A DNA stretch of 64,000 bases from an uncultured Acidobacteriota bacterium (GTDB lineage: Bacteria > Acidobacteriota > Thermoanaerobaculia > Thermoanaerobaculales > Sulfomarinibacteraceae): positions 333,611 to 397,610 of the forward strand of contig CAWFFJ010000018.1 in assembly GCA_963814875.1 (NCBI GenBank). The letters run 5' to 3'. Under the pieces are notes generated by a model that saw only the letters and a list, made by a program, of their open reading frames with translations, was not told the origin of the DNA and did not search any database. Shown piece after piece: positions 23,459-33,446 of the stretch (positions are counted from its first letter, which is position 1; each line of letters starts with the position of its first letter). Made by a program: the position numbers and the translations under genes.

Positions 23459-23782
23459 TCACCGGGGCCTGTTGTCGGACCCTCGGGCCTCCGAGCCCGC
23501 CTCTTCTCGCTCGATCACGAGGGCATTGTCGCCGTCGCCGGGGCACCCGGCGGCATGGGTCGCACGGACCTGCCGATAACCCTCGGGCACCGGCGAGACC
23601 GCGCACACCAGCTCCCGTTCGCCCGGTCGCTTGACCACCCACCCGTTCTGGTCTCCGCCTGAGCAGGCCGCCGAGTGGCACTCGGCGACGATCACCCAAC
23701 CCTCCGGCACCTTGGACGCCTTGCACACGACGCGGTGCTTGTGCGCCCGCCCGGTCACGCCACACCTCGCCGACGGCGCCAC
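23459..23782 (-). CDS. small Cys-rich hypothetical protein with an internal tandem ~40-aa repeat
   Basis: The two repeat units align: VVCKASKVPEGWVIVAECHSAACSGGDQNGWVVKR and LVCAVSPVPEGYRQVRATHAAGCPGDGDNALVIER. The start overlaps the upstream gene end by 28 nt. No family recognised. Confidence 0.45.
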   Translation of the reverse strand: MAPSARCGVTGRAHKHRVVCKASKVPEGWVIVAECHSAACSGGDQNGWVVKRPGERELVCAVSPVPEGYRQVRATHAAGCPGDGDNALVIEREEAGSEARGSDNRPR

Positions 23783-24729
23783 ATCCGCTCGAGCTCGTCG
23801 ACCATGTCGATGTCGGCGCGGATGCCGTTGACCTGGTTGATCTGGACGATCGTCGTCGGGCTGGTGACGTTGACCTCGGTCAAGTGCTCGCCAATAAAGT
23901 CGAGACCGATGAGGTAGATGCCGATCTGGTTGAGCTCGGCGGCGACGGTGCGGCAGGCGTCGAGCTGGCGTGGCGTGGGATCAAGCCTGGCCGCCGTCGC
24001 CCCCTGGTGCAGGTTGGCGAGGCGGGAGCCCGATCGCGGAACCCGCAGCACCGAGCCGAGAACGCGGTCGTTGAGGGTCAGGATGCGGAGGTCGCCGGTC
24101 GACTCGATCGCCTTCAGGTAGGGTTGGACGATGACCTCCGGGCCCCACTCGCGCCAGAAAACCTCGAGCTGCTCGCGCGGCGCATCGGGCGGGACGAAGG
24201 TGATGCCGATACCACAGTAGGTCCCTTTGGGCTTCAGCACCGCCTCGCCCGGCTGCTGCCGGACCGCGTTCTCGAGCTCTTCCGCCGACGCGCAGATCCA
24301 GGTCGGCGCGGCGTACTCCGGCCAGCGTAGGGCAAGGGTGTGCTCGGAGAGCTCGTAGGTGGCGGGCGGCCGGTTGACCTGAACGACATGCTCCGGAGCG
24401 TGCACGAAATGGCGGTGGTGGCGGACGTAGGTCGCGTCGACCGGAGGGTCCTTGCGCTGCAGGACGACGTGGTACTCGGCCACGTCCGCGGTACGCGCCG
24501 GTCCGAGCTCCCAGAACGGCATCGCGCTCGCGTCCGCGTGGACCACCTGCCGGACCGGTAGGGTGTCCAGGTAGCGATCGGTCGGCAGCTCCGCGTCGTG
24601 GGAGAGCAGGTCGAGGTAGTCGACGTGGAAGCCCCTGGCGAGCAGCTCACGGCTCACGCACACCGCGAGGTCGAACGTAGGGTTGAGGGTGTCCACGGGA
24701 TCGGCAACGAGGAGGTATCGGCTGCTCAT
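23755..24729 (-). CDS. gshB: glutathione synthetase-type ATP-grasp ligase (GshB-like)
   Basis: N-domain YLLVADPVDTLNPTFDLAVCVSRELLARG; ATP-grasp core LKPKGTYCGIGI, GDLRILTLN; end EVNVTSPTTIVQINQVNG. Start ATG 24729. Confidence 0.75.
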   Translation of the reverse strand: MSSRYLLVADPVDTLNPTFDLAVCVSRELLARGFHVDYLDLLSHDAELPTDRYLDTLPVRQVVHADASAMPFWELGPARTADVAEYHVVLQRKDPPVDATYVRHHRHFVHAPEHVVQVNRPPATYELSEHTLALRWPEYAAPTWICASAEELENAVRQQPGEAVLKPKGTYCGIGITFVPPDAPREQLEVFWREWGPEVIVQPYLKAIESTGDLRILTLNDRVLGSVLRVPRSGSRLANLHQGATAARLDPTPRQLDACRTVAAELNQIGIYLIGLDFIGEHLTEVNVTSPTTIVQINQVNGIRADIDMVDELERMWRRRRGVA

Positions 24730-24785
24730 CGCAGTCCCCAACATCGACCCTCGCCCACTGCTTCCCACCAGGAATCCGAGCAGGA

Positions 24786-24923
24786 TTCACCACAGAGGCA
24801 CAGAGGCACAGAGAGGAGCACGGAGCCCGCCTCCCGTCGCTTCTTCTCGCGGCATGTCCGGCGCGCGCTGCGCCGGCCATGCCGCGAGGGGAGGGCGGGT
24901 GGCCTCTGTGCCTCTGTGGTTCA
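24786..24923. repeat. palindromic intergenic element, CACAGAGG-type (about 138 bp)
   Basis: The left arm TTCACCACAGAGGCACAGAGGCACAGAGAGG pairs with the right arm CCTCTGTGCCTCTGTGGTTCA (18-nt perfect complement ACCACAGAGGCACAGAGG). Inner arms also pair: CTCGCGGCATG/CATGCCGCGAG and CCGGCGC/GCGCCGG. Confidence 0.85.
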
Positions 24924-25694
24924 CTCTGTCCGTCGGTGGACGTTGACCGCGGAGGCCTGCGCGCTCGGCAGCAGCACCATCTCGCGCACGTTGACGTGAG
25001 CGGGCAGGCTCGCGCAGTACAGCACCGCCTCTGCGACGTCCTCTGCTCGAAGCGGCTCGATCCCGCGGTAGACGGTTGCCGCACGATCGTCGTCGCCATG
25101 GAAGCGGACGACCGAGAACTCGGTCTCGACCAGGCCGGGATCGATCGAGCTGACCCGGACGCCGGTGCCGAGCGTGTCGATTGCAATTGAGCGGGTCAGG
25201 GCCGTGACTGCGTGCTTGGTGGCGCAGTAGACGTTGCCGCCCGGGTAGACCTCGTGGCCCGCGATCGAGCCGATCATGATCAGGTGTCCCCGTCCACGCG
25301 CCACCATCCCGGGAAGCAGCGCACGGGTGACGTAGAGCAACCCTTTGACGTTGGTGTCGACCATCTCGTCCCAGTCGTTGGGATCGCCGTCTTGGAGCGG
25401 CGACAGGCCGCGCGCGAGGCCCGCGTTGTTGACCAGCACCTCGACTTCGCCCCATGGCCCTTCAAGGCTCGCCGCCCACTCGGCGACGGCAGCCTGGTCA
25501 CGCACATCGAGAGCGCTCGCGAGAACCTCGGTTCCGTGGCGCTCGGCCAGAGTTCGAGCGAGAGTCTCGACCCGATCGAGTCTGCGCGCGGCAAGCACCA
25601 GACGCGCTCCGCGACCGGCGAAAGCAGCCGCGCAGGCCGCGCCGATTCCGGCGGAGGCTCCGGTGACGACAACTGTCCGACCGGTGAAGTCCAT
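24921..25694 (-). CDS. SDR family NAD(P)-dependent oxidoreductase (YdfG-like)
   Basis: TVVVTGASAGIG, NNAG, active site YCATKHAV. The stop codon lies inside the right arm of a palindromic repeat. Confidence 0.9.
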   Translation of the reverse strand: MDFTGRTVVVTGASAGIGAACAAAFAGRGARLVLAARRLDRVETLARTLAERHGTEVLASALDVRDQAAVAEWAASLEGPWGEVEVLVNNAGLARGLSPLQDGDPNDWDEMVDTNVKGLLYVTRALLPGMVARGRGHLIMIGSIAGHEVYPGGNVYCATKHAVTALTRSIAIDTLGTGVRVSSIDPGLVETEFSVVRFHGDDDRAATVYRGIEPLRAEDVAEAVLYCASLPAHVNVREMVLLPSAQASAVNVHRRTE

Positions 25695-25771: not shown

Positions 25772-27169
25772 CTAGGCGCCCTCGACAACAAACTCCTCGT
25801 CGCGCTCAGCGGCCTGTCGCTGCCATTCGGGCAGCCAGACGCCGTGTGCCATCGCCCTCAGCTGAGGCTCAAAGAAGAACTCGCGCTCGCCGAAGGCAGG
25901 CTCGAGATCGGTCAACCACCGTGCCTGGGCGTCGAAACGGGCGAAGAAGAGCCGGTTGACCCAGGACTGGTCCCGCCCCTGGATCATCTTCAGCGCGAAG
26001 ACCTTCTCGCCACCCACCTCGGCGATGCCTTCGATCAGCACCTTGCCTGGAGTCGCCGACATCGACGGTCCGCGCACCGTCCTACCCAGGCCGGAGACGC
26101 TGCCCACGGCTTCCGAGAAGATCCGGTAGGCGCGAGCGAGGGGGACCTCGAAGTAGTGCTTCGGTCCGGTGTCCCGCTCGACGAACATGTAGTACGGGAC
26201 CATCCCGAGGCGGACCTCGCTCCGCCACAGGTCGGCCCAGACATCGGCGGCGTCGTTCACGTGCCGGATCAAAGGCGCCTGGCAGCGAATCACAGCGCCT
26301 GTCGCCGTGATCCGCCGGATCGCCTCCTGCACCGCTGCGGTCTCGAGCTCACGCGGATGACTGAAGTGCGCCATGAGAGCAAGCTGGCGGCCGCTCGCGA
26401 CGACCCTCTCGAACAGGCGCAGCAGGTCGTCCGAGTCGGCATCGCTTGTGAAGCGGTACGGCCAGTAGGCCAGAGCCTTCGACCCAAGACGGATCGAAAC
26501 CAGGCGGTCTAGGCGTGGGTCGAGCAGGGCCTCGAAATACCGCTCCAGCACGCTGGTCTTCATGATCAGGGGGTCACCCCCCGTGAACAGCACGTCGCTC
26601 ACCTCGGAATGGCGCTGCAGGTATGCGATGAGCGTGTCCACCTCGCTGTTCGCGAAGCGAAGCTCATCGACCCCGACGAACTGCGCCCAGCGGAAGCAGT
26701 AGGTACAGAAGGCGTGGCAGGTCTGCCCCTGCGATGGAAAGAAGAGCACTGTTTCGCGGTACTTGTGCTGGCAGCCCGGCACCGGTTCTCCGTCGAGAGA
26801 GGGTACGTTGAGCTGCATCTGGCCTGCCGGATGGGGGTTCATCCGCGCCTGGACCCGACGCGCAGCGAAGTGAATCTCCTCCTTGGTGGCACCGGAGGCC
26901 ACCAGATCCTGCATGTGCCGTAGCTCCAGCGGCTCGAGCATTCCCGGCTGCGGGAAGGTGAGCTGGAAGATCGGGTCGCTCGGAATATCGTCCCAGTCGA
27001 TCAGCTCGCTCACGACGTAATCGTTGACGCGAAACGGGAGCACTGCCGAGACCGCCTCGAGGGCGACCCGCTGATCTCCGTTCAACCGCTCGAGCTGCGG
27101 AATACGATCCAGCTGTGCGCGCCCGACGGCGCGATACCGACGCGGGGCAGAAGCGAGAGCTCCGTCCAT
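25772..27169 (-). CDS. KamA-family radical SAM aminomutase (lysine 2,3-aminomutase-like)
   Basis: Cluster motif CHAFCTYCFR (CX3CX2C), DVLFTGGDPL, MAHFSHPRE, VPYYMFVERDTGPKHYF, SATPGKV. AAAGGAGGG RBS precedes ATG 27169. Confidence 0.85.
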   Translation of the reverse strand: MDGALASAPRRYRAVGRAQLDRIPQLERLNGDQRVALEAVSAVLPFRVNDYVVSELIDWDDIPSDPIFQLTFPQPGMLEPLELRHMQDLVASGATKEEIHFAARRVQARMNPHPAGQMQLNVPSLDGEPVPGCQHKYRETVLFFPSQGQTCHAFCTYCFRWAQFVGVDELRFANSEVDTLIAYLQRHSEVSDVLFTGGDPLIMKTSVLERYFEALLDPRLDRLVSIRLGSKALAYWPYRFTSDADSDDLLRLFERVVASGRQLALMAHFSHPRELETAAVQEAIRRITATGAVIRCQAPLIRHVNDAADVWADLWRSEVRLGMVPYYMFVERDTGPKHYFEVPLARAYRIFSEAVGSVSGLGRTVRGPSMSATPGKVLIEGIAEVGGEKVFALKMIQGRDQSWVNRLFFARFDAQARWLTDLEPAFGEREFFFEPQLRAMAHGVWLPEWQRQAAERDEEFVVEGA

Positions 27170-27293: not shown

Positions 27294-27322
27294 AATATAG
27301 CTGACAGAGAGCCCGGCGACAA
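27294..27322 (-). promoter_or_regulatory. candidate sigma-70-type promoter for the KamA-family gene
   Basis: The minus strand reads TTGTCG-17 nt-TATATT inside a locally AT-rich island, about 125 nt upstream of ATG 27169 and just downstream of the preceding terminator hairpin. Confidence 0.4.
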
Positions 27323-27387
27323 CCCCTCGAGGCACCACGAGACTGAGTAACGACGGCCATAGCACCTCGTGGACAGAGGCCGACGAA

Positions 27388-27413
27388 AATGCCGCCGACT
27401 CGGCGGCGGCATT
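27388..27413 (-). terminator. intrinsic-terminator-like hairpin after the sigma-54-controlled gene
   Basis: 10-bp GC-rich stem AATGCCGCCG / CGGCGGCATT with a 6-nt loop, followed on the minus strand by TTCG (a run of four T when the stem end is counted). About 60 nt after the stop at 27475. Confidence 0.55.
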
Positions 27414-27474
27414 CTCGTCCGGTCCATTGAACGGTCATGGCCTGCGGCACAGAGTTCGCCGCAGCCTGGGGAAA

Positions 27475-28245
27475 CTACTCGCGCGGAGCGGGCGGAGCAG
27501 GAGGTGCCGATGGGGCCGGCGGCAAGGGCGCGGCCGGCGGTGCGGCGATGCGCAGCACCTTCACGTGCGGCACGGCGGTCCGCTCCATCACCCGGCCGCA
27601 CACCGGACATAGGTAGCTCTCCTGGGTCGCCTTGTCACGGTCCATCCGGAGCACGGTGCCGTCGGCCGGACAACGGTAGGTCACACTGTCGGAGAGAATG
27701 AAATCGGCCTCGGGCGCGATCATGGCCGCATCTGAGGAATTGCCATTCCCGACGAACACCATCACGGTGTCCTCTCCGGCCTCATCGGGCATGGCGCTCT
27801 CGATCCGGATCTCGACCGGCTCGCCGTCCGCCTCACCGTCGCCTGCCATGACCCATTTCATGGCGACCTGGTGCTGGTGGGCGCCCTCAACCGAGCGCTC
27901 GCTCTCCTGCCGACTCTCGATCCACACCCGCTTCCCGCCCCCCGAGGCCGACTCGAAACGGAGTGCCTTTGCCGCGACCCTTTCACCGTCGAGGGTCACG
28001 TCGAGGCTGTCGCCGTGGCGCGTGATCACGACTTCGTGCGGGCCAACGGCGATCGTCCTCGCCTCGCCCTCGCCGAGGTCGGAGAGCCTCACGGTTTGAC
28101 TGTCGCCGCCGACGATCACCGTGACCCTGCCGTGCGACGAACTGCTGGGATCCGGCCCGGCGGGCTCCGCCAGAGCCACCGCCAGACCGCTCAACGCCAC
28201 CAGCACGGCCGCCAGCACCCAGTGCAACCAGGATCTCTCTTTCAT
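27475..28245 (-). CDS. secreted or membrane-anchored hypothetical protein with a C-terminal zinc-ribbon and Pro-rich tail
   Basis: Signal/anchor MKERSWLHWVLAAVLVALSGLAVALA. Acidic and His-containing middle (EGAHQHQVAMKW). YRCPADGTVL..SYLCPVCGRVMER, then the tail PPAAPLPPAPSAPPAPPAP. AAGGAGG RBS 6 nt before ATG 28245. Sigma-54 promoter upstream. Confidence 0.7.
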   Translation of the reverse strand: MKERSWLHWVLAAVLVALSGLAVALAEPAGPDPSSSSHGRVTVIVGGDSQTVRLSDLGEGEARTIAVGPHEVVITRHGDSLDVTLDGERVAAKALRFESASGGGKRVWIESRQESERSVEGAHQHQVAMKWVMAGDGEADGEPVEIRIESAMPDEAGEDTVMVFVGNGNSSDAAMIAPEADFILSDSVTYRCPADGTVLRMDRDKATQESYLCPVCGRVMERTAVPHVKVLRIAAPPAAPLPPAPSAPPAPPAPRE

Positions 28246-28306
28246 CGCATCCTCCTTGTTGAGCGCCGCAGATCGGAAACGTCGTGCGGCCTCGACAGGG
28301 TCAATG

Positions 28307-28321
28307 GCAAAGGCCGTGCCA
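28307..28321 (-). promoter_or_regulatory. sigma-54 (RpoN) -24/-12 promoter
   Basis: The minus strand reads CTGGCACGGCCTTTGCCAT. This is an exact match to TGGCACG-N4-TTGC with correct GG/GC spacing. It lies 62 nt upstream of ATG 28245 and directly downstream of the sigma-54-dependent activator gene. Confidence 0.8.
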
Positions 28322-28492
28322 GCCGATCGATGGAGATCGGCCATCCCTCGAAACATTGTGTGTTCAGTCTGATCTGCCTTTGAACCGATACGACGCCCGC
28401 GCCGAGCCTCGCCGGCCGAATCTGTTGCCTCCCCACATGGGGACACCATCTCCCCAAAGGAGGAGGTGAATGCACCGCGCCGGAAGGATCCC

Positions 28493-29872
28493 CTACCGGG
28501 TGTATTGCTCGTCAAGCCCAAACTTGGCCAGCCGATACAAGAATGTCTTGTAGCTCAGGCCGAGCAGGCGGGCCGCGCTGGCACGGTTGCCGTCGGCGAG
28601 CTCCAGAGCCTGCCGCAGCAGGTCCTCCTCCATCTCGTCCCAAGCAACCCCCGATGGCGGCAGATGGAATGTTCCCCTTCCGGACGAGGTGGCCGCCCCG
28701 ATCTCGGGTGGCAGGTCGTCGGCGCTCACTCGGCCGTCCTCGGCGAGCAGCACCAGCCGTTCGAGGGCATTGGCGAGCTCCCGCACGTTGCCCGGCCAGG
28801 TGTGCTCCATCAGCCGACGCAGCACCGCCTGCGGCAGTTGCTGGGCGACGGTGGCATGGCGCTCGGCGGCCCGACGGACGAGCACATTGGCCAGAGCAGG
28901 AATGTCCTCCCGGCGCTCACGTAGAGGTGGGAGCCGAACCGGGAACACGTTGAGTCGATAGTAGAGATCCTCGCGGAAGCTACCCTCCGCCACCATGTCC
29001 GCAAGGTCCCGGTTGGTCGCGGCCACAACCCGCGCGTCACAGGCGACCTCGCCGGTACCACCGAGACGGGTCACCCGTCGCTCCTGGAGGGCGCGCAGGA
29101 CCTTCGCCTGGAGGGCAAGCGGCATCGATGCCACCTCGTCGAGGAAGAGGGTCCCTCCCGACGCCTCCTCGAACTTGCCCTCACGGCGTCGGTGGGCCCC
29201 GGTGAACGCGCCGCGCTCGTGGCCGAACAGCTCGCTCTCCATCAGCGACTCGGGAATCGCGGCGCAGTTCACGGCGACGAAGGGACCGCCGCTGCGCCGG
29301 CTGCGGCGGTGGAGCATTCTCGCGACCAGCTCCTTGCCGGTCCCGGACTCACCCGTCACCAGCACCGTCGCCTCGGTGTCGGCGACCTTTTCGAGCGTCC
29401 GATAGAGCTGCTGCATGGCCGGAGTGCGACCAATGATCTCGCCGTAGCCGTCCCTGACCTCGGCCTCCGCGCGCAGACGCAGGTTTTCCCGCTCGAGCTC
29501 CCGGGTCCGCAACACCCTCTGCACGGCGAGCAGGAGCGCCTCGCGTTCGAACGGCTTCGCCAGGTAGTCGGCAGCTCCACGCCGCACCGCCTCGACTGCG
29601 TGCGCGATCGAGCCATAAGCGGTCATCACGATCACCGCGGATGGAATACCTCGCCCTCGCAGCTCGTCGAGCAGGTCGCCGCCCGTGCGGCCCGGTAGTC
29701 TCCAGTCGCTCAGCACCACGTCAGGAAAATCATCCTCGATCGCAGTCAGGGCAGCGTCGACATCCGGCGCGCTGCGCACGTCGTAGCCACTGCGGGTGAG
29801 GATCCCGGCAATCAGCTCGCGCTGTGCTGCCTCGTCCTCCACGACCAGCACCGTGGCGGGAGGGGTGCTCAT
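28493..29872 (-). CDS. sigma-54-dependent response regulator (NtrC/ZraR/AtoC class: REC, AAA+, Fis-type HTH)
   Basis: VLVVEDEA, LSDWRLPG, Walker A GESGTGKE, sigma-54 contact loop ERGAFTGA, C-terminal NRASAARLLGLSYKTFLYRL. Confidence 0.95.
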   Translation of the reverse strand: MSTPPATVLVVEDEAAQRELIAGILTRSGYDVRSAPDVDAALTAIEDDFPDVVLSDWRLPGRTGGDLLDELRGRGIPSAVIVMTAYGSIAHAVEAVRRGAADYLAKPFEREALLLAVQRVLRTRELERENLRLRAEAEVRDGYGEIIGRTPAMQQLYRTLEKVADTEATVLVTGESGTGKELVARMLHRRSRRSGGPFVAVNCAAIPESLMESELFGHERGAFTGAHRRREGKFEEASGGTLFLDEVASMPLALQAKVLRALQERRVTRLGGTGEVACDARVVAATNRDLADMVAEGSFREDLYYRLNVFPVRLPPLRERREDIPALANVLVRRAAERHATVAQQLPQAVLRRLMEHTWPGNVRELANALERLVLLAEDGRVSADDLPPEIGAATSSGRGTFHLPPSGVAWDEMEEDLLRQALELADGNRASAARLLGLSYKTFLYRLAKFGLDEQYTR

Positions 29873-31374
29873 GACGGGGAGTCCTTGCCGGGGGGCACCA
29901 ACGGCAGCCGGAGCAGCGCCCGCGTGCCTCCGCCTTCGACATCGTCGATCTCGAGCTCGCCACCATGCATTCCGACCACCAGGGCCCTGGCAAGGTACAG
30001 GCCCATCCCCGACCCCTCCGGGCGAGTGCTGACGTGCGGCGAATAGAGGCGCTCTCGGATCTCGGCGGGCAGACCGCGCCCCCAGTCGCGGACCTCGATC
30101 TCCGCCCTCGAGCGGACCCGTCGAACAGCGATCGTGACCGGTTTGCCCGAGGGCGAGGCCTGGACCGCGTTTTCCACCAGGTTGGCGAGCGCGGCACGGA
30201 CCGCAGCGGGAACCACGTCTGCGACGACTGGTTCAGCGACCAGCTCGACCTCCGCACCGCCCTGGACAGCCTCCAGGACCACCGAGTGGGCCAGCTCGGC
30301 GAGATCGACAGCCTCGACGTCACCGGCCTCGCCCGCGCCGACGGCCAGGAACGAACGCAGCCACCTGTCGATGCGGCGGATCTGGGTCCGAGCCATCGCC
30401 ACCAGCTGCCCGTCGCCCGGGTTCCATCCGGCGAGCTCCTCGACCGCAAGTCCGAGTGTGTTCAGTGGGTTGCGGACGGTATGAGCAAGACCGCGCGCGA
30501 GGTCCCCGAGCTGCGCCAGGTGCTCCCGATCACGCCATGCCGCGCGCTCCTGCTCGAGCTGGGCGAGACGCAGCGACATCCTGTTGAAGGCACGCTGCAG
30601 CTCCCCTACCTCGCCACCCGCATCCTCCGGGACCTGGACGCCGAGTGCGCCCTGGCCGAGCAACTCTGCCTCCGCCGCCAGACGTCCCAGCGGAGCGGCG
30701 ACCCGTCGGGCCATGACCCCGGAGGCGACCAGGCCGACCGCAAGCACTCCGAGGCTGAACAACATGCCCTCGCGCAGGTTGGCCTGGGCGAGGCGCACGG
30801 TAGGCGCGAGCGGGATCGGAACCCTACGAACGAAGCCCGGGTCTGCGGTCACCACGAGCACCCCTTGCGATCCGCCCTGGTCCTCGGCGACGTGGAAGCT
30901 GAACTGCTGGACGACCCGCGTTCGGGTGTGGGCGTCCGGTGCCGCGGGGGCAACCGGGTGCTCGGCGCCCGTGTCATCGCTCTCCGCCAGGACCCACGCG
31001 AAGGCCGGCTGCGCCGGGGGTGCCAGCTCGGCCGGCGGTTGCGCCGGTGCCGGTCGGCTCGGCTCCCCGGGCCCCGCGGGCGGCTCCCGCTCGACTGTCT
31101 TCAGGAGGTGCTCGGCCCTCGTGATGACCACGGAGTGGTTCACGTCGGTCCGGATGCCGTCCTGCATGACCTCGCTGCGCACATTAACCTCGCCCGGAGG
31201 CAGCATGATGACGCGCGGTTCCGGACCGAGCAGGTCGCGGCCGACGCTGGTCGCGACCGCGCCGACCGCGGCCGGCAGGGCGACGAGCTGACGCATGTGG
31301 AGCCACCACTGCGCCGCCATCACGGCGAGCACGAGCGCCGATGTGCCGAGGAAGAAGCGAGTCTGCAGACGCAT
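29869..31374 (-). CDS. sensor histidine kinase with a large periplasmic domain, HAMP, HisKA and HATPase_c
   Basis: H-box LARGLAHTVRNPLN, N box NLVENAVQA, DWGRGL, GSGMGLYLA. 4-nt overlap with the downstream regulator. Start ATG 31374 after GGAGG; the ORF opens at 31410. Confidence 0.9.
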   Translation of the reverse strand: MRLQTRFFLGTSALVLAVMAAQWWLHMRQLVALPAAVGAVATSVGRDLLGPEPRVIMLPPGEVNVRSEVMQDGIRTDVNHSVVITRAEHLLKTVEREPPAGPGEPSRPAPAQPPAELAPPAQPAFAWVLAESDDTGAEHPVAPAAPDAHTRTRVVQQFSFHVAEDQGGSQGVLVVTADPGFVRRVPIPLAPTVRLAQANLREGMLFSLGVLAVGLVASGVMARRVAAPLGRLAAEAELLGQGALGVQVPEDAGGEVGELQRAFNRMSLRLAQLEQERAAWRDREHLAQLGDLARGLAHTVRNPLNTLGLAVEELAGWNPGDGQLVAMARTQIRRIDRWLRSFLAVGAGEAGDVEAVDLAELAHSVVLEAVQGGAEVELVAEPVVADVVPAAVRAALANLVENAVQASPSGKPVTIAVRRVRSRAEIEVRDWGRGLPAEIRERLYSPHVSTRPEGSGMGLYLARALVVGMHGGELEIDDVEGGGTRALLRLPLVPPGKDSPS

Positions 31375-31496
31375 CAGGACCTCCGGAGCCGCCGGCGTGG
31401 AGGGCGCCACGCCGGCCGGCTCGTGTCTACAGTAGCAACCGCCATGCCACCTGGTGCGATGCTATTCTTCTCGTCCCGAATGCTGCGGGAGGCGAC

Positions 31497-33446
31497 GTGT
31501 CCGAGACCTACTACATCACGACCCCGATCTACTACGTCAACGACCTGCCCCACATCGGGCACATCTACACCACCGTCATGGCCGACGTCCTGGCTCGGTA
31601 CCAGCGGATGAACGGTCGGCGGGTACACTTCCTGACCGGGACCGACGAGCACGGACAGAAGATCGAGAAGGCCGCGCGGGCTCAGGGAGTCCAACCGATC
31701 GAGCTCGCCGATCGGGTCGTCGCGAGATATCACGAGCTGTGGAAGGTGCTCGACATCTCGCACGACGACTTCATCCGCACCACCGAGCCGCGCCACCAGA
31801 AGGCGGTGGCAGCGATGATCCGCCGCTTCGCCGCCGCTGGCGACCTCTACAAGGGTGCGTACGAGGGCTGGTACTGCGCCGGCGCGGAGGCGTTCGTGCC
31901 CGACTCACAGGTCAAGGACGGCCGCGACCTGGAGTCCGGGTACCCGGTCGAGCGCTTGGCCGAGTCGAGCTGGTTCTTCCGGCTGTCGGCCTATCAGGAG
32001 CGACTGCTCGAGTGGTATCGCAACAACCCCGAGTGCATCCGGCCTGCGAGCCGGTACAACGAGGTGGTCAGCTTCGTCGAAGGCGGTCTCAAGGACCTCT
32101 CGATCTCACGCACCTCGATCCGCTGGGGGGTGCCCTGGCCGGGCGACCCCGAACATGTCGTCTACGTGTGGCTCGACGCCTTGACCAACTACGTCTCCGC
32201 CCTCGGGTTCGGCGGCGAAGACGACGAGCTCTACCAGACCCACTGGCCCGCCTCCCTCCACCTCGTCGGCAAGGACATCCTCCGCTTCCACTGCGTGTAC
32301 TGGCCGGCCTTCCTGATGTCCGCAGGAATGCCTCTGCCCCGCCAGGTCTTCGGCCACGGGTGGTGGACCAAGGACGACGCCAAGATGTCCAAGTCGCTGG
32401 GCAACGTCGTCCGGCCCGACTACCTGGTCGACCGTTTCGGTGCCGACGTCGTGCGTTACTTTCTTGTCCGGGACATGACCTTCGGCCAGGACAGCTCGTT
32501 CTCCGACGCGGCCTTCCTCGAGCGCTTCAACGCCGACCTCGCGAACGCCCTCGGCAACGCGGCGTCGCGAACGCTCGCGCTGGTCCGCCGCAATCTCGAC
32601 GGCCGCGTCCCCGAGCCGATCGGCGACGGCCCGCTCCCGGCCGCGGCGGACGATGCGGTGCGCCAGTATCGTCGACACATGGATGCCCTCGAGCCCCAGC
32701 GCGCCCTGGAGGCTGCGTGGCGGCTGCTCGCCACTCTCGACGGCTTCATCCAGGAACGTCAACCGTGGGCTCTTGCACGCCAGGGTGACGCTGGCCGGGC
32801 ACGCCTCGAGGCCACACTCGCAGACTCCCTCGAGGCGCTCCGCATCACCTCGGTGCTGCTCGAACCCATCATGCCCCGCACCTGTGCAGAGCTGCGGCGA
32901 CAGCTCGGGGCCGAGGGGCTCCCTGTCAATCTTCGGACCGGCGCCGAGTGGGGTCTGCTCGGGCACGGCGCCACCGTCGGCGAAGGCGGTCCATTGTTCC
33001 CGAGGGTCGACATCGCCATAACCCTGAAGGAGCTGGCCATGCGTGACGAGACGACCTCCCCACCAACTTCCACCGCGGCCACCGACGCACCTGCGGCGTC
33101 GCCCACCGCCCCCACCGGGGAGCTCTTGTCCATCGATCGTTTCGCCGAGGTCCAGTTGGTCATCGGCGTCGTCCGCGAGGCCGAGCGCGTGCCCAAGTCG
33201 AAGAAGCTCGTCCGGCTGATGGTCGATCTGGGCGAGCCGGAGCTGCGTCAGATCGTCGCCGGCATCGCCGAGCGCTACGAGCCCGACAGCCTCGTCGGCC
33301 GTCGGATCGTGGTGGTGGCGAACCTGCAGCCCGCGAAACTCATGGGGGTGGAGTCGCGCGGCATGCTGCTGGCCGCCTCGGTGAACGGCGATCCCTACCT
33401 GCTGTCGCCGGACGGAGAGGTTGCGCCGGGGACCCGCGTCAAGTAG
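31497..33446 (+). CDS. metG: methionine--tRNA ligase with a C-terminal tRNA-binding (Trbp111/EMAP-like) domain
   Basis: YYITTPIYYVNDLPHIGH (HIGH), KMSKS present, C-terminal VGVVREAERVPKSKKLVRLMVDLG. GTG 31497 follows GGGAGG; the upstream ORF extension from 31341 was rejected. Confidence 0.95.
   Translation: MSETYYITTPIYYVNDLPHIGHIYTTVMADVLARYQRMNGRRVHFLTGTDEHGQKIEKAARAQGVQPIELADRVVARYHELWKVLDISHDDFIRTTEPRHQKAVAAMIRRFAAAGDLYKGAYEGWYCAGAEAFVPDSQVKDGRDLESGYPVERLAESSWFFRLSAYQERLLEWYRNNPECIRPASRYNEVVSFVEGGLKDLSISRTSIRWGVPWPGDPEHVVYVWLDALTNYVSALGFGGEDDELYQTHWPASLHLVGKDILRFHCVYWPAFLMSAGMPLPRQVFGHGWWTKDDAKMSKSLGNVVRPDYLVDRFGADVVRYFLVRDMTFGQDSSFSDAAFLERFNADLANALGNAASRTLALVRRNLDGRVPEPIGDGPLPAAADDAVRQYRRHMDALEPQRALEAAWRLLATLDGFIQERQPWALARQGDAGRARLEATLADSLEALRITSVLLEPIMPRTCAELRRQLGAEGLPVNLRTGAEWGLLGHGATVGEGGPLFPRVDIAITLKELAMRDETTSPPTSTAATDAPAASPTAPTGELLSIDRFAEVQLVIGVVREAERVPKSKKLVRLMVDLGEPELRQIVAGIAERYEPDSLVGRRIVVVANLQPAKLMGVESRGMLLAASVNGDPYLLSPDGEVAPGTRVK

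Follow-up and report, generated by a model that had tools for sequence, protein, structure and literature searches.

A 64,000-nucleotide stretch of an uncultured Acidobacteriota genome (contig CAWFFJ010000018.1; "the window" below means this whole stretch) carries a predicted sigma-54 signalling module of three genes and two promoters that is conserved in the class Thermoanaerobaculia. A sensor histidine kinase and an NtrC-type activator are followed by a gene for an exported protein, here called the effector. In the model that we propose, the kinase would signal to the activator, the activator would act from a pair of tandem dyads on a -24/-12 promoter serving the effector gene, and the kinase-activator operon would have a sigma-54-type promoter of its own; we put the probability of this model at roughly three in four. 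As far as sequence and comparison with relatives can establish them, the domain content, both promoters, the tandem dyads, the gene order and the terminator are firm. An initial annotation had described a self-contained sigma-54 circuit at this locus. Direct reading found all of its features, with coordinates and counts right to within 1–2 nt, and the label is justified because the order of the genes upstream of the effector, the promoter and the terminator are conserved across diverged relatives.

The window has a G+C content of 67.6%, and the module is read on its minus strand. We compared it with 18 distinct related loci from metagenomes and metagenome-assembled genomes (MAGs) of Acidobacteriota, class Thermoanaerobaculia, labelled L001–L019 (L004 is the same contig as L001). 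The pairs L003/L005, L010/L011, L012/L013 and L015/L016 were counted as one lineage each, as was the window; five loci came from a metagenome scan with a 10-sequence effector alignment. By effector identity, the closest genome match is L003 (91%; MAG labelled uncultured Thermoanaerobaculia bacterium, CAZQYU01) and the second is L001 (71%; MAG labelled uncultured Acidobacteriota bacterium, CAVSIS01); remoter relatives appear as "hypothetical protein" in MAGs of Acidobacteria and Thermoanaerobaculales. Among the 11 lineages whose upstream gene is visible, eight have the kinase and activator genes, or the 3′ end of the activator gene at a contig cut, directly upstream of the effector gene (window, L001, L003/L005, L008, L010/L011, L012/L013, L015/L016 and L017).

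The effector promoter, TGGCACGGCCTTTGC, matches TGGCACG-N4-TTGC exactly. The GG of the -24 element lies at 28320/28319 and the GC of the -12 element at 28308/28307, so that the doublets are exactly 10 nt apart, and transcription is predicted to start near 28296. Within an activator-effector intergenic region of 247 nt, the element begins 172 nt past the activator stop (28493), its -12 GC standing 62 nt ahead of the effector ATG (28245), at the position and distances initially annotated. An exact match is expected 0.03 times per 64-kb window and was observed once; in 128 kb, counting both strands, just two sites match at 11 or more of 12 positions, and both flank the module. When relatives were scored against TGGCACG-N4-TTGCW at a threshold of at least 10/12, the promoter was found 48–65 nt 5′ of the effector ATG in 11 lineages (window, L001, L002, L003/L005, L006, L008, L009, L010/L011, L012/L013, L015/L016 and L017), among which effector identity ranges from 25 to 91%. 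The distance is thus nearly fixed while the surrounding sequence diverges. On a remoter branch, L018 and L019 have TGGCACG-N4-[AC]TGC at 90–101 nt from the ATG.

Between the activator stop and this promoter lie two tandem dyads, which are likely to be the binding site (enhancer) of the adjacent activator. In the window they read TCCTCCTTTGGGGA-gatggtg-TCCCCATGTGGGGA (28464..28430), with a 7-bp spacer and 21 bp from centre to centre, and dyad 2 stands 109 nt upstream of the first T of TGGCAC. The family consensus of each dyad is TCCC-S-A-W-W-T-S-GGGA. Nine lineages have the tandem pair (window, L001, L003/L005, L006, L008, L010/L011, L012/L013, L015/L016 and L017), always with the 7-bp spacer and always between the activator stop and the effector promoter, 31–235 nt upstream of TGGCAC; the flanking intergenic sequence has diverged. 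Without mismatch the tandem pattern is unique in the window, and 0.34 matches would be expected if up to two mismatches were allowed. We assign the dyads to the activator because two adjacent dimer sites on the same helix face are the classical layout of an NtrC-type enhancer. An alternative reading as a single TGGGGA-N7-TCCCCA palindrome was dropped, since the remote loci show this to be the junction of two 14-bp dyads. The inverted repeat GCCGATC-N6-GATCGGC that was annotated next to the -24 element does exist (28341..28322), but not as a conserved operator: it is degraded to GCCGGTC...GCTCGGC in L003/L005, even though L003 is 91% identical, and it is absent from L001.

The activator matches Response_reg (PF00072), Sigma54_activat (PF00158, E = 1e-73), AAA_lid_14 (PF25601) and HTH_8 (PF02954), all above the Pfam cut-offs. 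It bears the GAFTGA loop attributed to it at the outset, is the sole GAFTGA protein in the window, and has NtrC-family proteins as its best PDB relatives. The kinase consists of a first transmembrane helix (TM1), a periplasmic loop of about 180 aa, Pro/Ala-rich in the window, a second transmembrane helix (TM2), and HAMP, HisKA and HATPase_c domains; its start is backed by a conserved GGAGG-N6-ATG. In an alignment with four orthologues, TM1, HAMP and the catalytic core are highly conserved and the periplasmic loop is variable, retaining only VATSVGRD near TM1 and VPIPxxPT near TM2. The two reading frames overlap by 4 nt (ATGA; kinase end 29869, activator start 29872), as had been noted, and the same arrangement occurs in L001, L008, L010 and L012. 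Both proteins fall below every NCBIfam equivalog cut-off, the activator with 458 bits against a cut-off of 714 for AtoC, 448 against 559 for NtrC and 378 against 760 for ZraR, and the kinase with 105 against 646 for AtoS and 85 against 479 for ZraS. By these scores they are generic members of the NtrC family and not orthologues of a named system. A reading as a defence system was discarded, as PADLOC gave no specific match and only a generic AAA+ likeness of the activator to RtcR/PspF-type models.

A second sigma-54-type element, TGGCATGGCGGTTGC, lies 61 nt upstream of the kinase ATG and is the predicted promoter of the kinase-activator operon. An equivalent is present 40–61 nt before the kinase start in six lineages (window, L001, L003, L008, L010/L011 and L012/L013). 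L008, L010 and L012 have a gene other than metG upstream and still keep the element, which therefore belongs to the kinase operon. The two promoters stand in tandem, 3.1 kb apart, and no motif shared by the regions upstream of them was found. In the window, metG (5′ end 31497..31560, on the opposite strand) begins about 50 nt from the kinase-operon promoter. The 8-mer ATGTGGGG upstream of this promoter proved uninformative, lying within metG codons for the HIGH motif. Similarly, GTGCCCGATGTGGGGC, about 100 nt upstream of the -24 element, resembles one enhancer dyad; it is the reverse complement of the metG codons for P-H-I-G-H, and the likeness is probably a coding coincidence, as it is absent where metG is not the neighbour.

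The predicted effector transcript begins with a leader and ends at a terminator. As annotated, a strong Shine-Dalgarno sequence precedes the effector gene, and it is invariant in close relatives. A leader hairpin, GAGGCCGC...GCGGCGCTC, is predicted in the 5′ untranslated region, with a minimum free energy of -24.8 kcal/mol (z = -2.2). Its sequence and structure are kept in four close relatives, where 2 of 16 pairs are compensatory, but could not be traced further out. It may act on translation or on stability. Between the window and L001, the leader (from the -12 element to the ATG) is more conserved than the DNA upstream of the promoter. The 91 nt past the effector stop fold with z = -3.0, and the annotated terminator was recovered there as the GC-rich hairpin GCCGCCGAGTCGGCGGC followed by ATTTTC (27407..27391), a 7-bp core in a 13-bp stem and then AUUUUC; the T tract has only four T. 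Terminators follow the effector in four lineages: the window, L001 with an identical hairpin, and L010 and L012 with different hairpins and a T tract. In three of the four, a sigma-70-like promoter of the next gene comes after.

Table 1. Coordinates of the predicted features of the module in the window.
Feature	Coordinates	Strand	Description
Sensor histidine kinase	29869..31374	-	501 aa; Pfam HAMP, HisKA, HATPase_c
NtrC-type response regulator / bacterial enhancer-binding protein (activator)	28493..29872	-	459 aa; REC, AAA+ with GAFTGA, Fis-type helix-turn-helix
Effector	27475..28245	-	256 aa; no Pfam, NCBIfam or PADLOC family
Sigma-54 promoter TGGCACGGCCTTTGC	28307..28321	-	exact TGGCACG-N4-TTGC
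Second sigma-54-type promoter TGGCATGGCGGTTGC	31435..31449	-	one mismatch to TGGCACG-N4-TTGC
Predicted enhancer (upstream activating sequence) dyad 1 TCCTCCTTTGGGGA	28451..28464	-	first half of tandem TCCY-N6-GGGA / N7 / TCCC-N6-GGGA
Predicted enhancer (upstream activating sequence) dyad 2 TCCCCATGTGGGGA	28430..28443	-	perfect 14-bp palindrome
Shine-Dalgarno AAGGAGG	28251..28257	-	5 nt before effector ATG
Predicted leader hairpin GAGGCCGC...GCGGCGCTC	28254..28299	-	outer pairs extend into Shine-Dalgarno region
Two hairpins 3′ of effector stop	27385..27468	-	second terminator-like

Several observations weigh against the proposed wiring. No open reading frame with an RpoN box occurs in the window. 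We infer that the genome encodes rpoN, because GAFTGA activators and genome-encoded sigma-54 almost always occur together (PMC3162934). The adjacent activator is absent from three remote members of the effector family (L014, L018 and L019), and L014, alone among the compared loci, lacks an effector promoter site. In none of the lineages was an enhancer-type dyad (at most one mismatch) found in the 300 nt preceding the kinase promoter. Self-activation would therefore require DNA looping across some 3 kb, or else a different activator; the kinase promoter might be activated by looping from the downstream enhancer, from solution or by that different activator. Finally, the dyads sit just past the activator stop and can fold as RNA, and a terminator role is thus possible. 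On that account, the TCCC-N6-GGGA pair would be an RNA hairpin that ends the kinase-activator transcript, with the true activator sites elsewhere or absent. In the window the element does begin 27 nt past the activator stop, in L008, L013 and L015 it begins at the stop or only a few nt from it, and the region folds as a long hairpin of -28 to -32 kcal/mol. However, its folding energy does not surpass that of shuffled sequence (z = +0.3, -0.1 and -1.1), and there is no T tract after it. Two separate 14-bp palindromes with a fixed spacing of two helical turns are typical of dimer sites and unlike a single stem, conservation is at the level of sequence without compensatory change, and L017 and L006 retain the pair despite poorly pairing arms. 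We consider this account improbable, and the two roles are not mutually exclusive.

It is less probable again that the effector promoter depends on sigma-54 but is served by a different enhancer-binding protein, the adjacent pair controlling other genes. L018 and L019 have sigma-54-like promoters without an adjacent activator, and the kinase promoter lacks enhancer-type dyads. Yet the activator is immediately upstream in most lineages whose upstream gene is visible, the dyads travel with the activator-effector junction, and the window offers no other GAFTGA protein. Barely credible, in our judgement, is a chance -24/-12 match, with the effector gene transcribed from an ordinary sigma-70 promoter or as a continuation of the activator transcript. 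Read-through is physically possible, as no T-tract terminator follows the activator gene, but the rarity of the exact match and its fixed distance in 11 lineages amid diverging surroundings argue against chance, and no sigma-70-like site was found between 28245 and 28493. On our reading, the adjacent activator would bind the dyads and would also feed the kinase promoter.

Relatives of the effector were sought in two ways: a word-indexed search returned just three close relatives, and an exhaustive profile search 149 cluster representatives at E ≤ 1e-3, 70 of them at E ≤ 1e-10. Five long proteins among the weakest matches (P0045, P0108, P0113, P0120 and P0133) are Ig, FN3 or WD40 repeat proteins and were set aside as profile false positives. 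Most members have 225–285 aa and one common architecture. In the window protein this comprises a hydrophobic helix ending in A-x-A|E (aa 1–26), a five-stranded β-module (aa 40–85), an acidic disordered linker (aa 92–183), a ribbon-like domain (aa 186–228; nt 27690..27562) and a Pro/Ala tail (aa 233–256). Across the family, the helix follows M-[KR]-x-x-S-W-x(4)-L-A-A-x-L-V-x(3)-G-x-A-x-A-x-A|E, the β-module of about 50 aa follows LEDLADGEERTF-x-AGDH-x-VTV-x-R-x-GD-x-L-x-V-x-LDG, the linker is variable and rich in Asp, Glu, Gly and His, and the C-terminal domain follows Y-R-C-x-E-D-G-T...K-D-K-A-T-Q-x-S-Y-x-C-P-V-C-G-R-x-M-E-K. The median isoelectric point is 4.5, with 22% Asp plus Glu and a median of 7 His. 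AlphaFold2 (AF2) modelling from three sequences gave a predicted local distance difference test (pLDDT) score of 46. With 36 sequences, both domains became confident, residues 40–85 forming five strands at about 90 and residues 186–225 scoring 91–97, while residues 92–183 stayed below 50. Searching the PDB with this model by Foldseek gave nothing significant; the best matches (E ≥ 0.28), to zinc-ribbon proteins and Rieske knuckles, fell on the C-terminal domain. As initially proposed, the effector is unrelated to ZraP, for neither it nor 36 relatives matched the CpxP/LTXXQ Pfam model at E ≤ 0.1, and it has no other Pfam match. In proteins of 320–470 aa such as P0005, P0007, P0009 and P0016, a similar signal sequence is followed by the β-module in three or four copies, and the ribbon domain is missing; the module is therefore a repeat unit in its own right, and an undescribed one. 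Weak, sub-threshold matches to carboxylase BT-domain models were obtained for ten of 36 family members.

At the N-terminus, MKER, a positively charged n-region, is followed by 18 apolar residues (an uninterrupted run of 17–19) and A-L-A|E, in which A24 and A26 are conserved; this fits cleavage by signal peptidase I. A retained anchor is also possible: the helix core is long, and its conservation is on a level with that of the folded domains (the commonest residue has a mean frequency of 0.50 in the helix, 0.58 in the folded domains and 0.29 in the linker), which is unusual for a discarded signal peptide. A type IV pilin was rejected, there being no pilin leader motif (no G|FTLIE). The poly-Pro tail of the initial annotation is present in the window protein but is no family feature, since the Pro/Ala tail is confined to the window clade (window, P0001, P0002, P0003 and L003/L005) and elsewhere the tail is acidic. 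The tail (residues 233–256, nt 27478..27549) and a Pro/Ala insert in the kinase loop (residues ~97–125, nt ~31000..31086) occur together in the window and L001, and both are absent in L008 (72% G+C), L010 and L012. Base composition alone does not explain this pairing, because L008 lacks both at 72% G+C. The pairing is a hint of co-evolution, from a single clade and thus one evolutionary event.

The C-terminal domain had been described as a CPxxG...CPVCG zinc ribbon. Two knuckles are indeed present, but not a canonical four-ligand ribbon: the window protein has C192-P-A-D195 and C213-P-V-C216, that is, three Cys and an Asp, and some relatives have two Cys. The β-hairpin knuckles, C-P-x-x-G and C-P-x-C-G some 20 residues apart, recall zinc-ribbon and rubredoxin-knuckle domains (RNA polymerase subunit P, LysW, YdjO). 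The matches by Pfam, PDB sequence and Foldseek are weak and all below threshold (the HVO_2753_ZBP, YdjO, LysW and TFIIB models of Pfam are below cut-off for this domain, and PDB profiles give E ≥ 1.1). Unlike those domains, with four Cys/His ligands in cytoplasmic proteins, this one is exported and varies in its ligand set (CPxC, CPxH or DPxxGC). Among the ligand columns of 137 aligned C-terminal domains, C192 is the only invariant ligand (Cys in 136). Position 194 is Glu or Asp in 117 of 137; position 213 is Cys in 93 and Asp in 42; position 214 is Pro in all 137; position 216 is His (40), Cys (37), Thr (34) or Ser (18); and position 218 is Cys in 53, chiefly where 216 is Thr or Ser. These combinations define three sequence types: CPxCG, [CD]PxxGC and CPxH. 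We slightly favour a Cys/Asp/Cys(His) metal site, because Cys-to-His and Cys-to-Asp exchanges at fixed positions typify metal sites.

To the points above that speak against the model must be added that the ribbon has no fourth Cys, that a disulfide between C192 and a Cys of the second knuckle is feasible in every family type, and that the role of the effector is drawn solely from composition, predicted fold and analogy. The circuit might be as described and the C-terminal Cys be joined in a structural disulfide, the protein then serving the envelope as a structural, adhesive or chaperone-like component without a metal role; we think this unlikely, though well within consideration. The invariance of C192 alone would suit it, as would the 41 of 159 short family members with just two Cys in the C-terminal domain (type DPxxGC), the 9 of 36 aligned members with two Cys in total, the sub-threshold scores of the zinc-ribbon models and Foldseek matches, and the export of the protein to where disulfides are common. 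On the other side stand the Cys/His and Cys/Asp alternations at 216 and 213, the Cys at 218 when 216 is Thr or Ser, and the acidic residue at 194. Such ligand swaps preserve metal-ligand chemistry, which a disulfide does not require. Cultured members of the Thermoanaerobaculia are anaerobes, the named relatives come from Thermoanaerobaculia and Thermoanaerobaculales MAGs, and periplasmic thiols may stay reduced if these organisms are anaerobic.

In the mechanism that we propose, an envelope signal would activate the membrane kinase (31374..29869), which would phosphorylate the activator (29872..28493). Activator dimers would occupy the two 14-bp dyads just downstream of their own gene and oligomerise into an AAA+ ring that remodels the sigma-54 holoenzyme held at 28321..28307 and opens the closed complex. 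The product would be a short monocistronic mRNA with a structured leader, terminated at a hairpin and encoding a very acidic exported protein of about 24 kDa, in which two small β domains are joined by a disordered linker rich in Asp, Glu and His; the C-terminal one would be a ribbon-like knuckle pair with a probable Cys/Asp/Cys(His) metal site. The kinase-activator operon would be co-induced from its own sigma-54-type promoter (31449..31435), and the module is probably self-amplifying, like ZraSR. By analogy, and tentatively, the effector could be a periplasmic or membrane-anchored metal- or cation-binding protein with an envelope-stress or accessory role, and it may feed back on the kinase. 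More doubtful is the idea that it represents a new class of two-component accessory factor and is itself the true signal receptor, binding metal or cations through the Cys/Asp/His ribbon and the acidic linker and modulating a kinase whose periplasmic loop is degenerate. The unusually conserved N-terminal helix of the effector, the equally conserved TM1 of the kinase, the variable kinase loop and the joint occurrence of Pro/Ala insert and tail in one clade leave room for this idea.

The closest architectural parallel is the ZraP-ZraS-ZraR system of E. coli and Salmonella, which responds to zinc and envelope stress and likewise has a membrane kinase and an NtrC-type activator. ZraR drives sigma-54 promoters of both zraP and zraSR (PMC4987338). 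In both systems such promoters precede the kinase-regulator operon and a single exported accessory protein, and the parallel is stronger than first claimed, as the kinase operon here too has a conserved sigma-54-type promoter, like zraSR (PMC4987338). The effector would also share with ZraP an acidic, His-containing composition and a probable metal site. Unlike in ZraPSR, the activator and kinase fall well short of the ZraR and ZraS equivalog cut-offs, the effector is predicted to be β and disordered rather than helical and lacks the CpxP/LTXXQ domain, and the genes are in tandem and not divergent, so that the two promoters cannot share one intergenic enhancer.

Parallels with other systems are partial. 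In NtrB-NtrC/glnAp2 and DctB-DctD/dctA, as here, two adjacent dyads for activator dimers lie some 65–275 bp upstream of a -24/-12 promoter. Such sites would presumably nucleate the active oligomer, in line with the general mechanism (PMC3162934). The dyad TCCC-SAWWTS-GGGA and its 21-bp spacing are, however, specific to the family described here, the target is an exported protein and not a metabolic enzyme or transporter, and the activator is below the NtrC equivalog cut-off. The periplasmic accessory proteins CpxP and Spy offer a looser analogy, being small exported proteins whose gene is the main adjacent target, with possible feedback on the kinase; the effector has no sequence or predicted-fold similarity to them. 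The CpxP and Spy genes have sigma-70 promoters. In PilS-PilR/pilA, genes for a kinase and an NtrC-type regulator likewise precede a sigma-54 promoter, whose target is a small protein that begins with a hydrophobic helix. The gene order and the small target with its hydrophobic helix are similar here; unlike PilA, the effector has A-x-A|E in place of a type IV pilin leader, and there are no pilus genes nearby.

The genes 3′ of the effector vary among the loci. In the window, the next gene (25772..27169, minus strand) has a sigma-70-like promoter of its own (27322..27294) and encodes a radical-SAM aminomutase-like protein of the KamA family that reaches no equivalog cut-off. It is followed by genes for a short-chain dehydrogenase/reductase (SDR; 24921..25694) and a glutathione-synthetase-like ATP-grasp protein (23755..24768). 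L001, L010/L011 and L017 likewise have the effector gene followed by a KamA-like gene and an SDR gene. The gene immediately 3′ of the effector in L002 and L014 encodes an MscS-type mechanosensitive channel, which may hint at osmotic or envelope physiology or be merely inherited synteny; next comes an unannotated 460-aa protein in L014, and a gene cut by the contig end in L002. The effector homologue of L014 (P0169, 6001..6750) is the most divergent member: it has no signal sequence, no second Cys (DPATGG), no sigma-54 promoter and no adjacent two-component genes, and its neighbour is a divergent PDZ-GGDEF gene. This copy may be in decay or have been re-purposed.

Members of the Acidobacteriota are abundant and difficult to culture, and we know of almost no experimental work on their signalling; a literature search for sigma-54 circuits in Acidobacteria found nothing specific. 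The wiring described here is of a textbook kind, and the effector belongs to an undescribed, lineage-restricted family tied to a defined enhancer and promoter. Because the wiring itself is ordinary, the value of the finding lies in the effector and in its possible link to envelope or metal homeostasis. A family with 70 representatives at E ≤ 1e-10 and no relative in Pfam, NCBIfam or the PDB thereby gains a regulatory context. The module is a compact and fully specified unit (sensor, activator, predicted 35-bp enhancer, two sigma-54 promoters, leader, target gene and terminator) that could be rebuilt in a heterologous host, and the consensus TCCC-SAWWTS-GGGA could help to trace the remainder of the regulon across Thermoanaerobaculia genomes.

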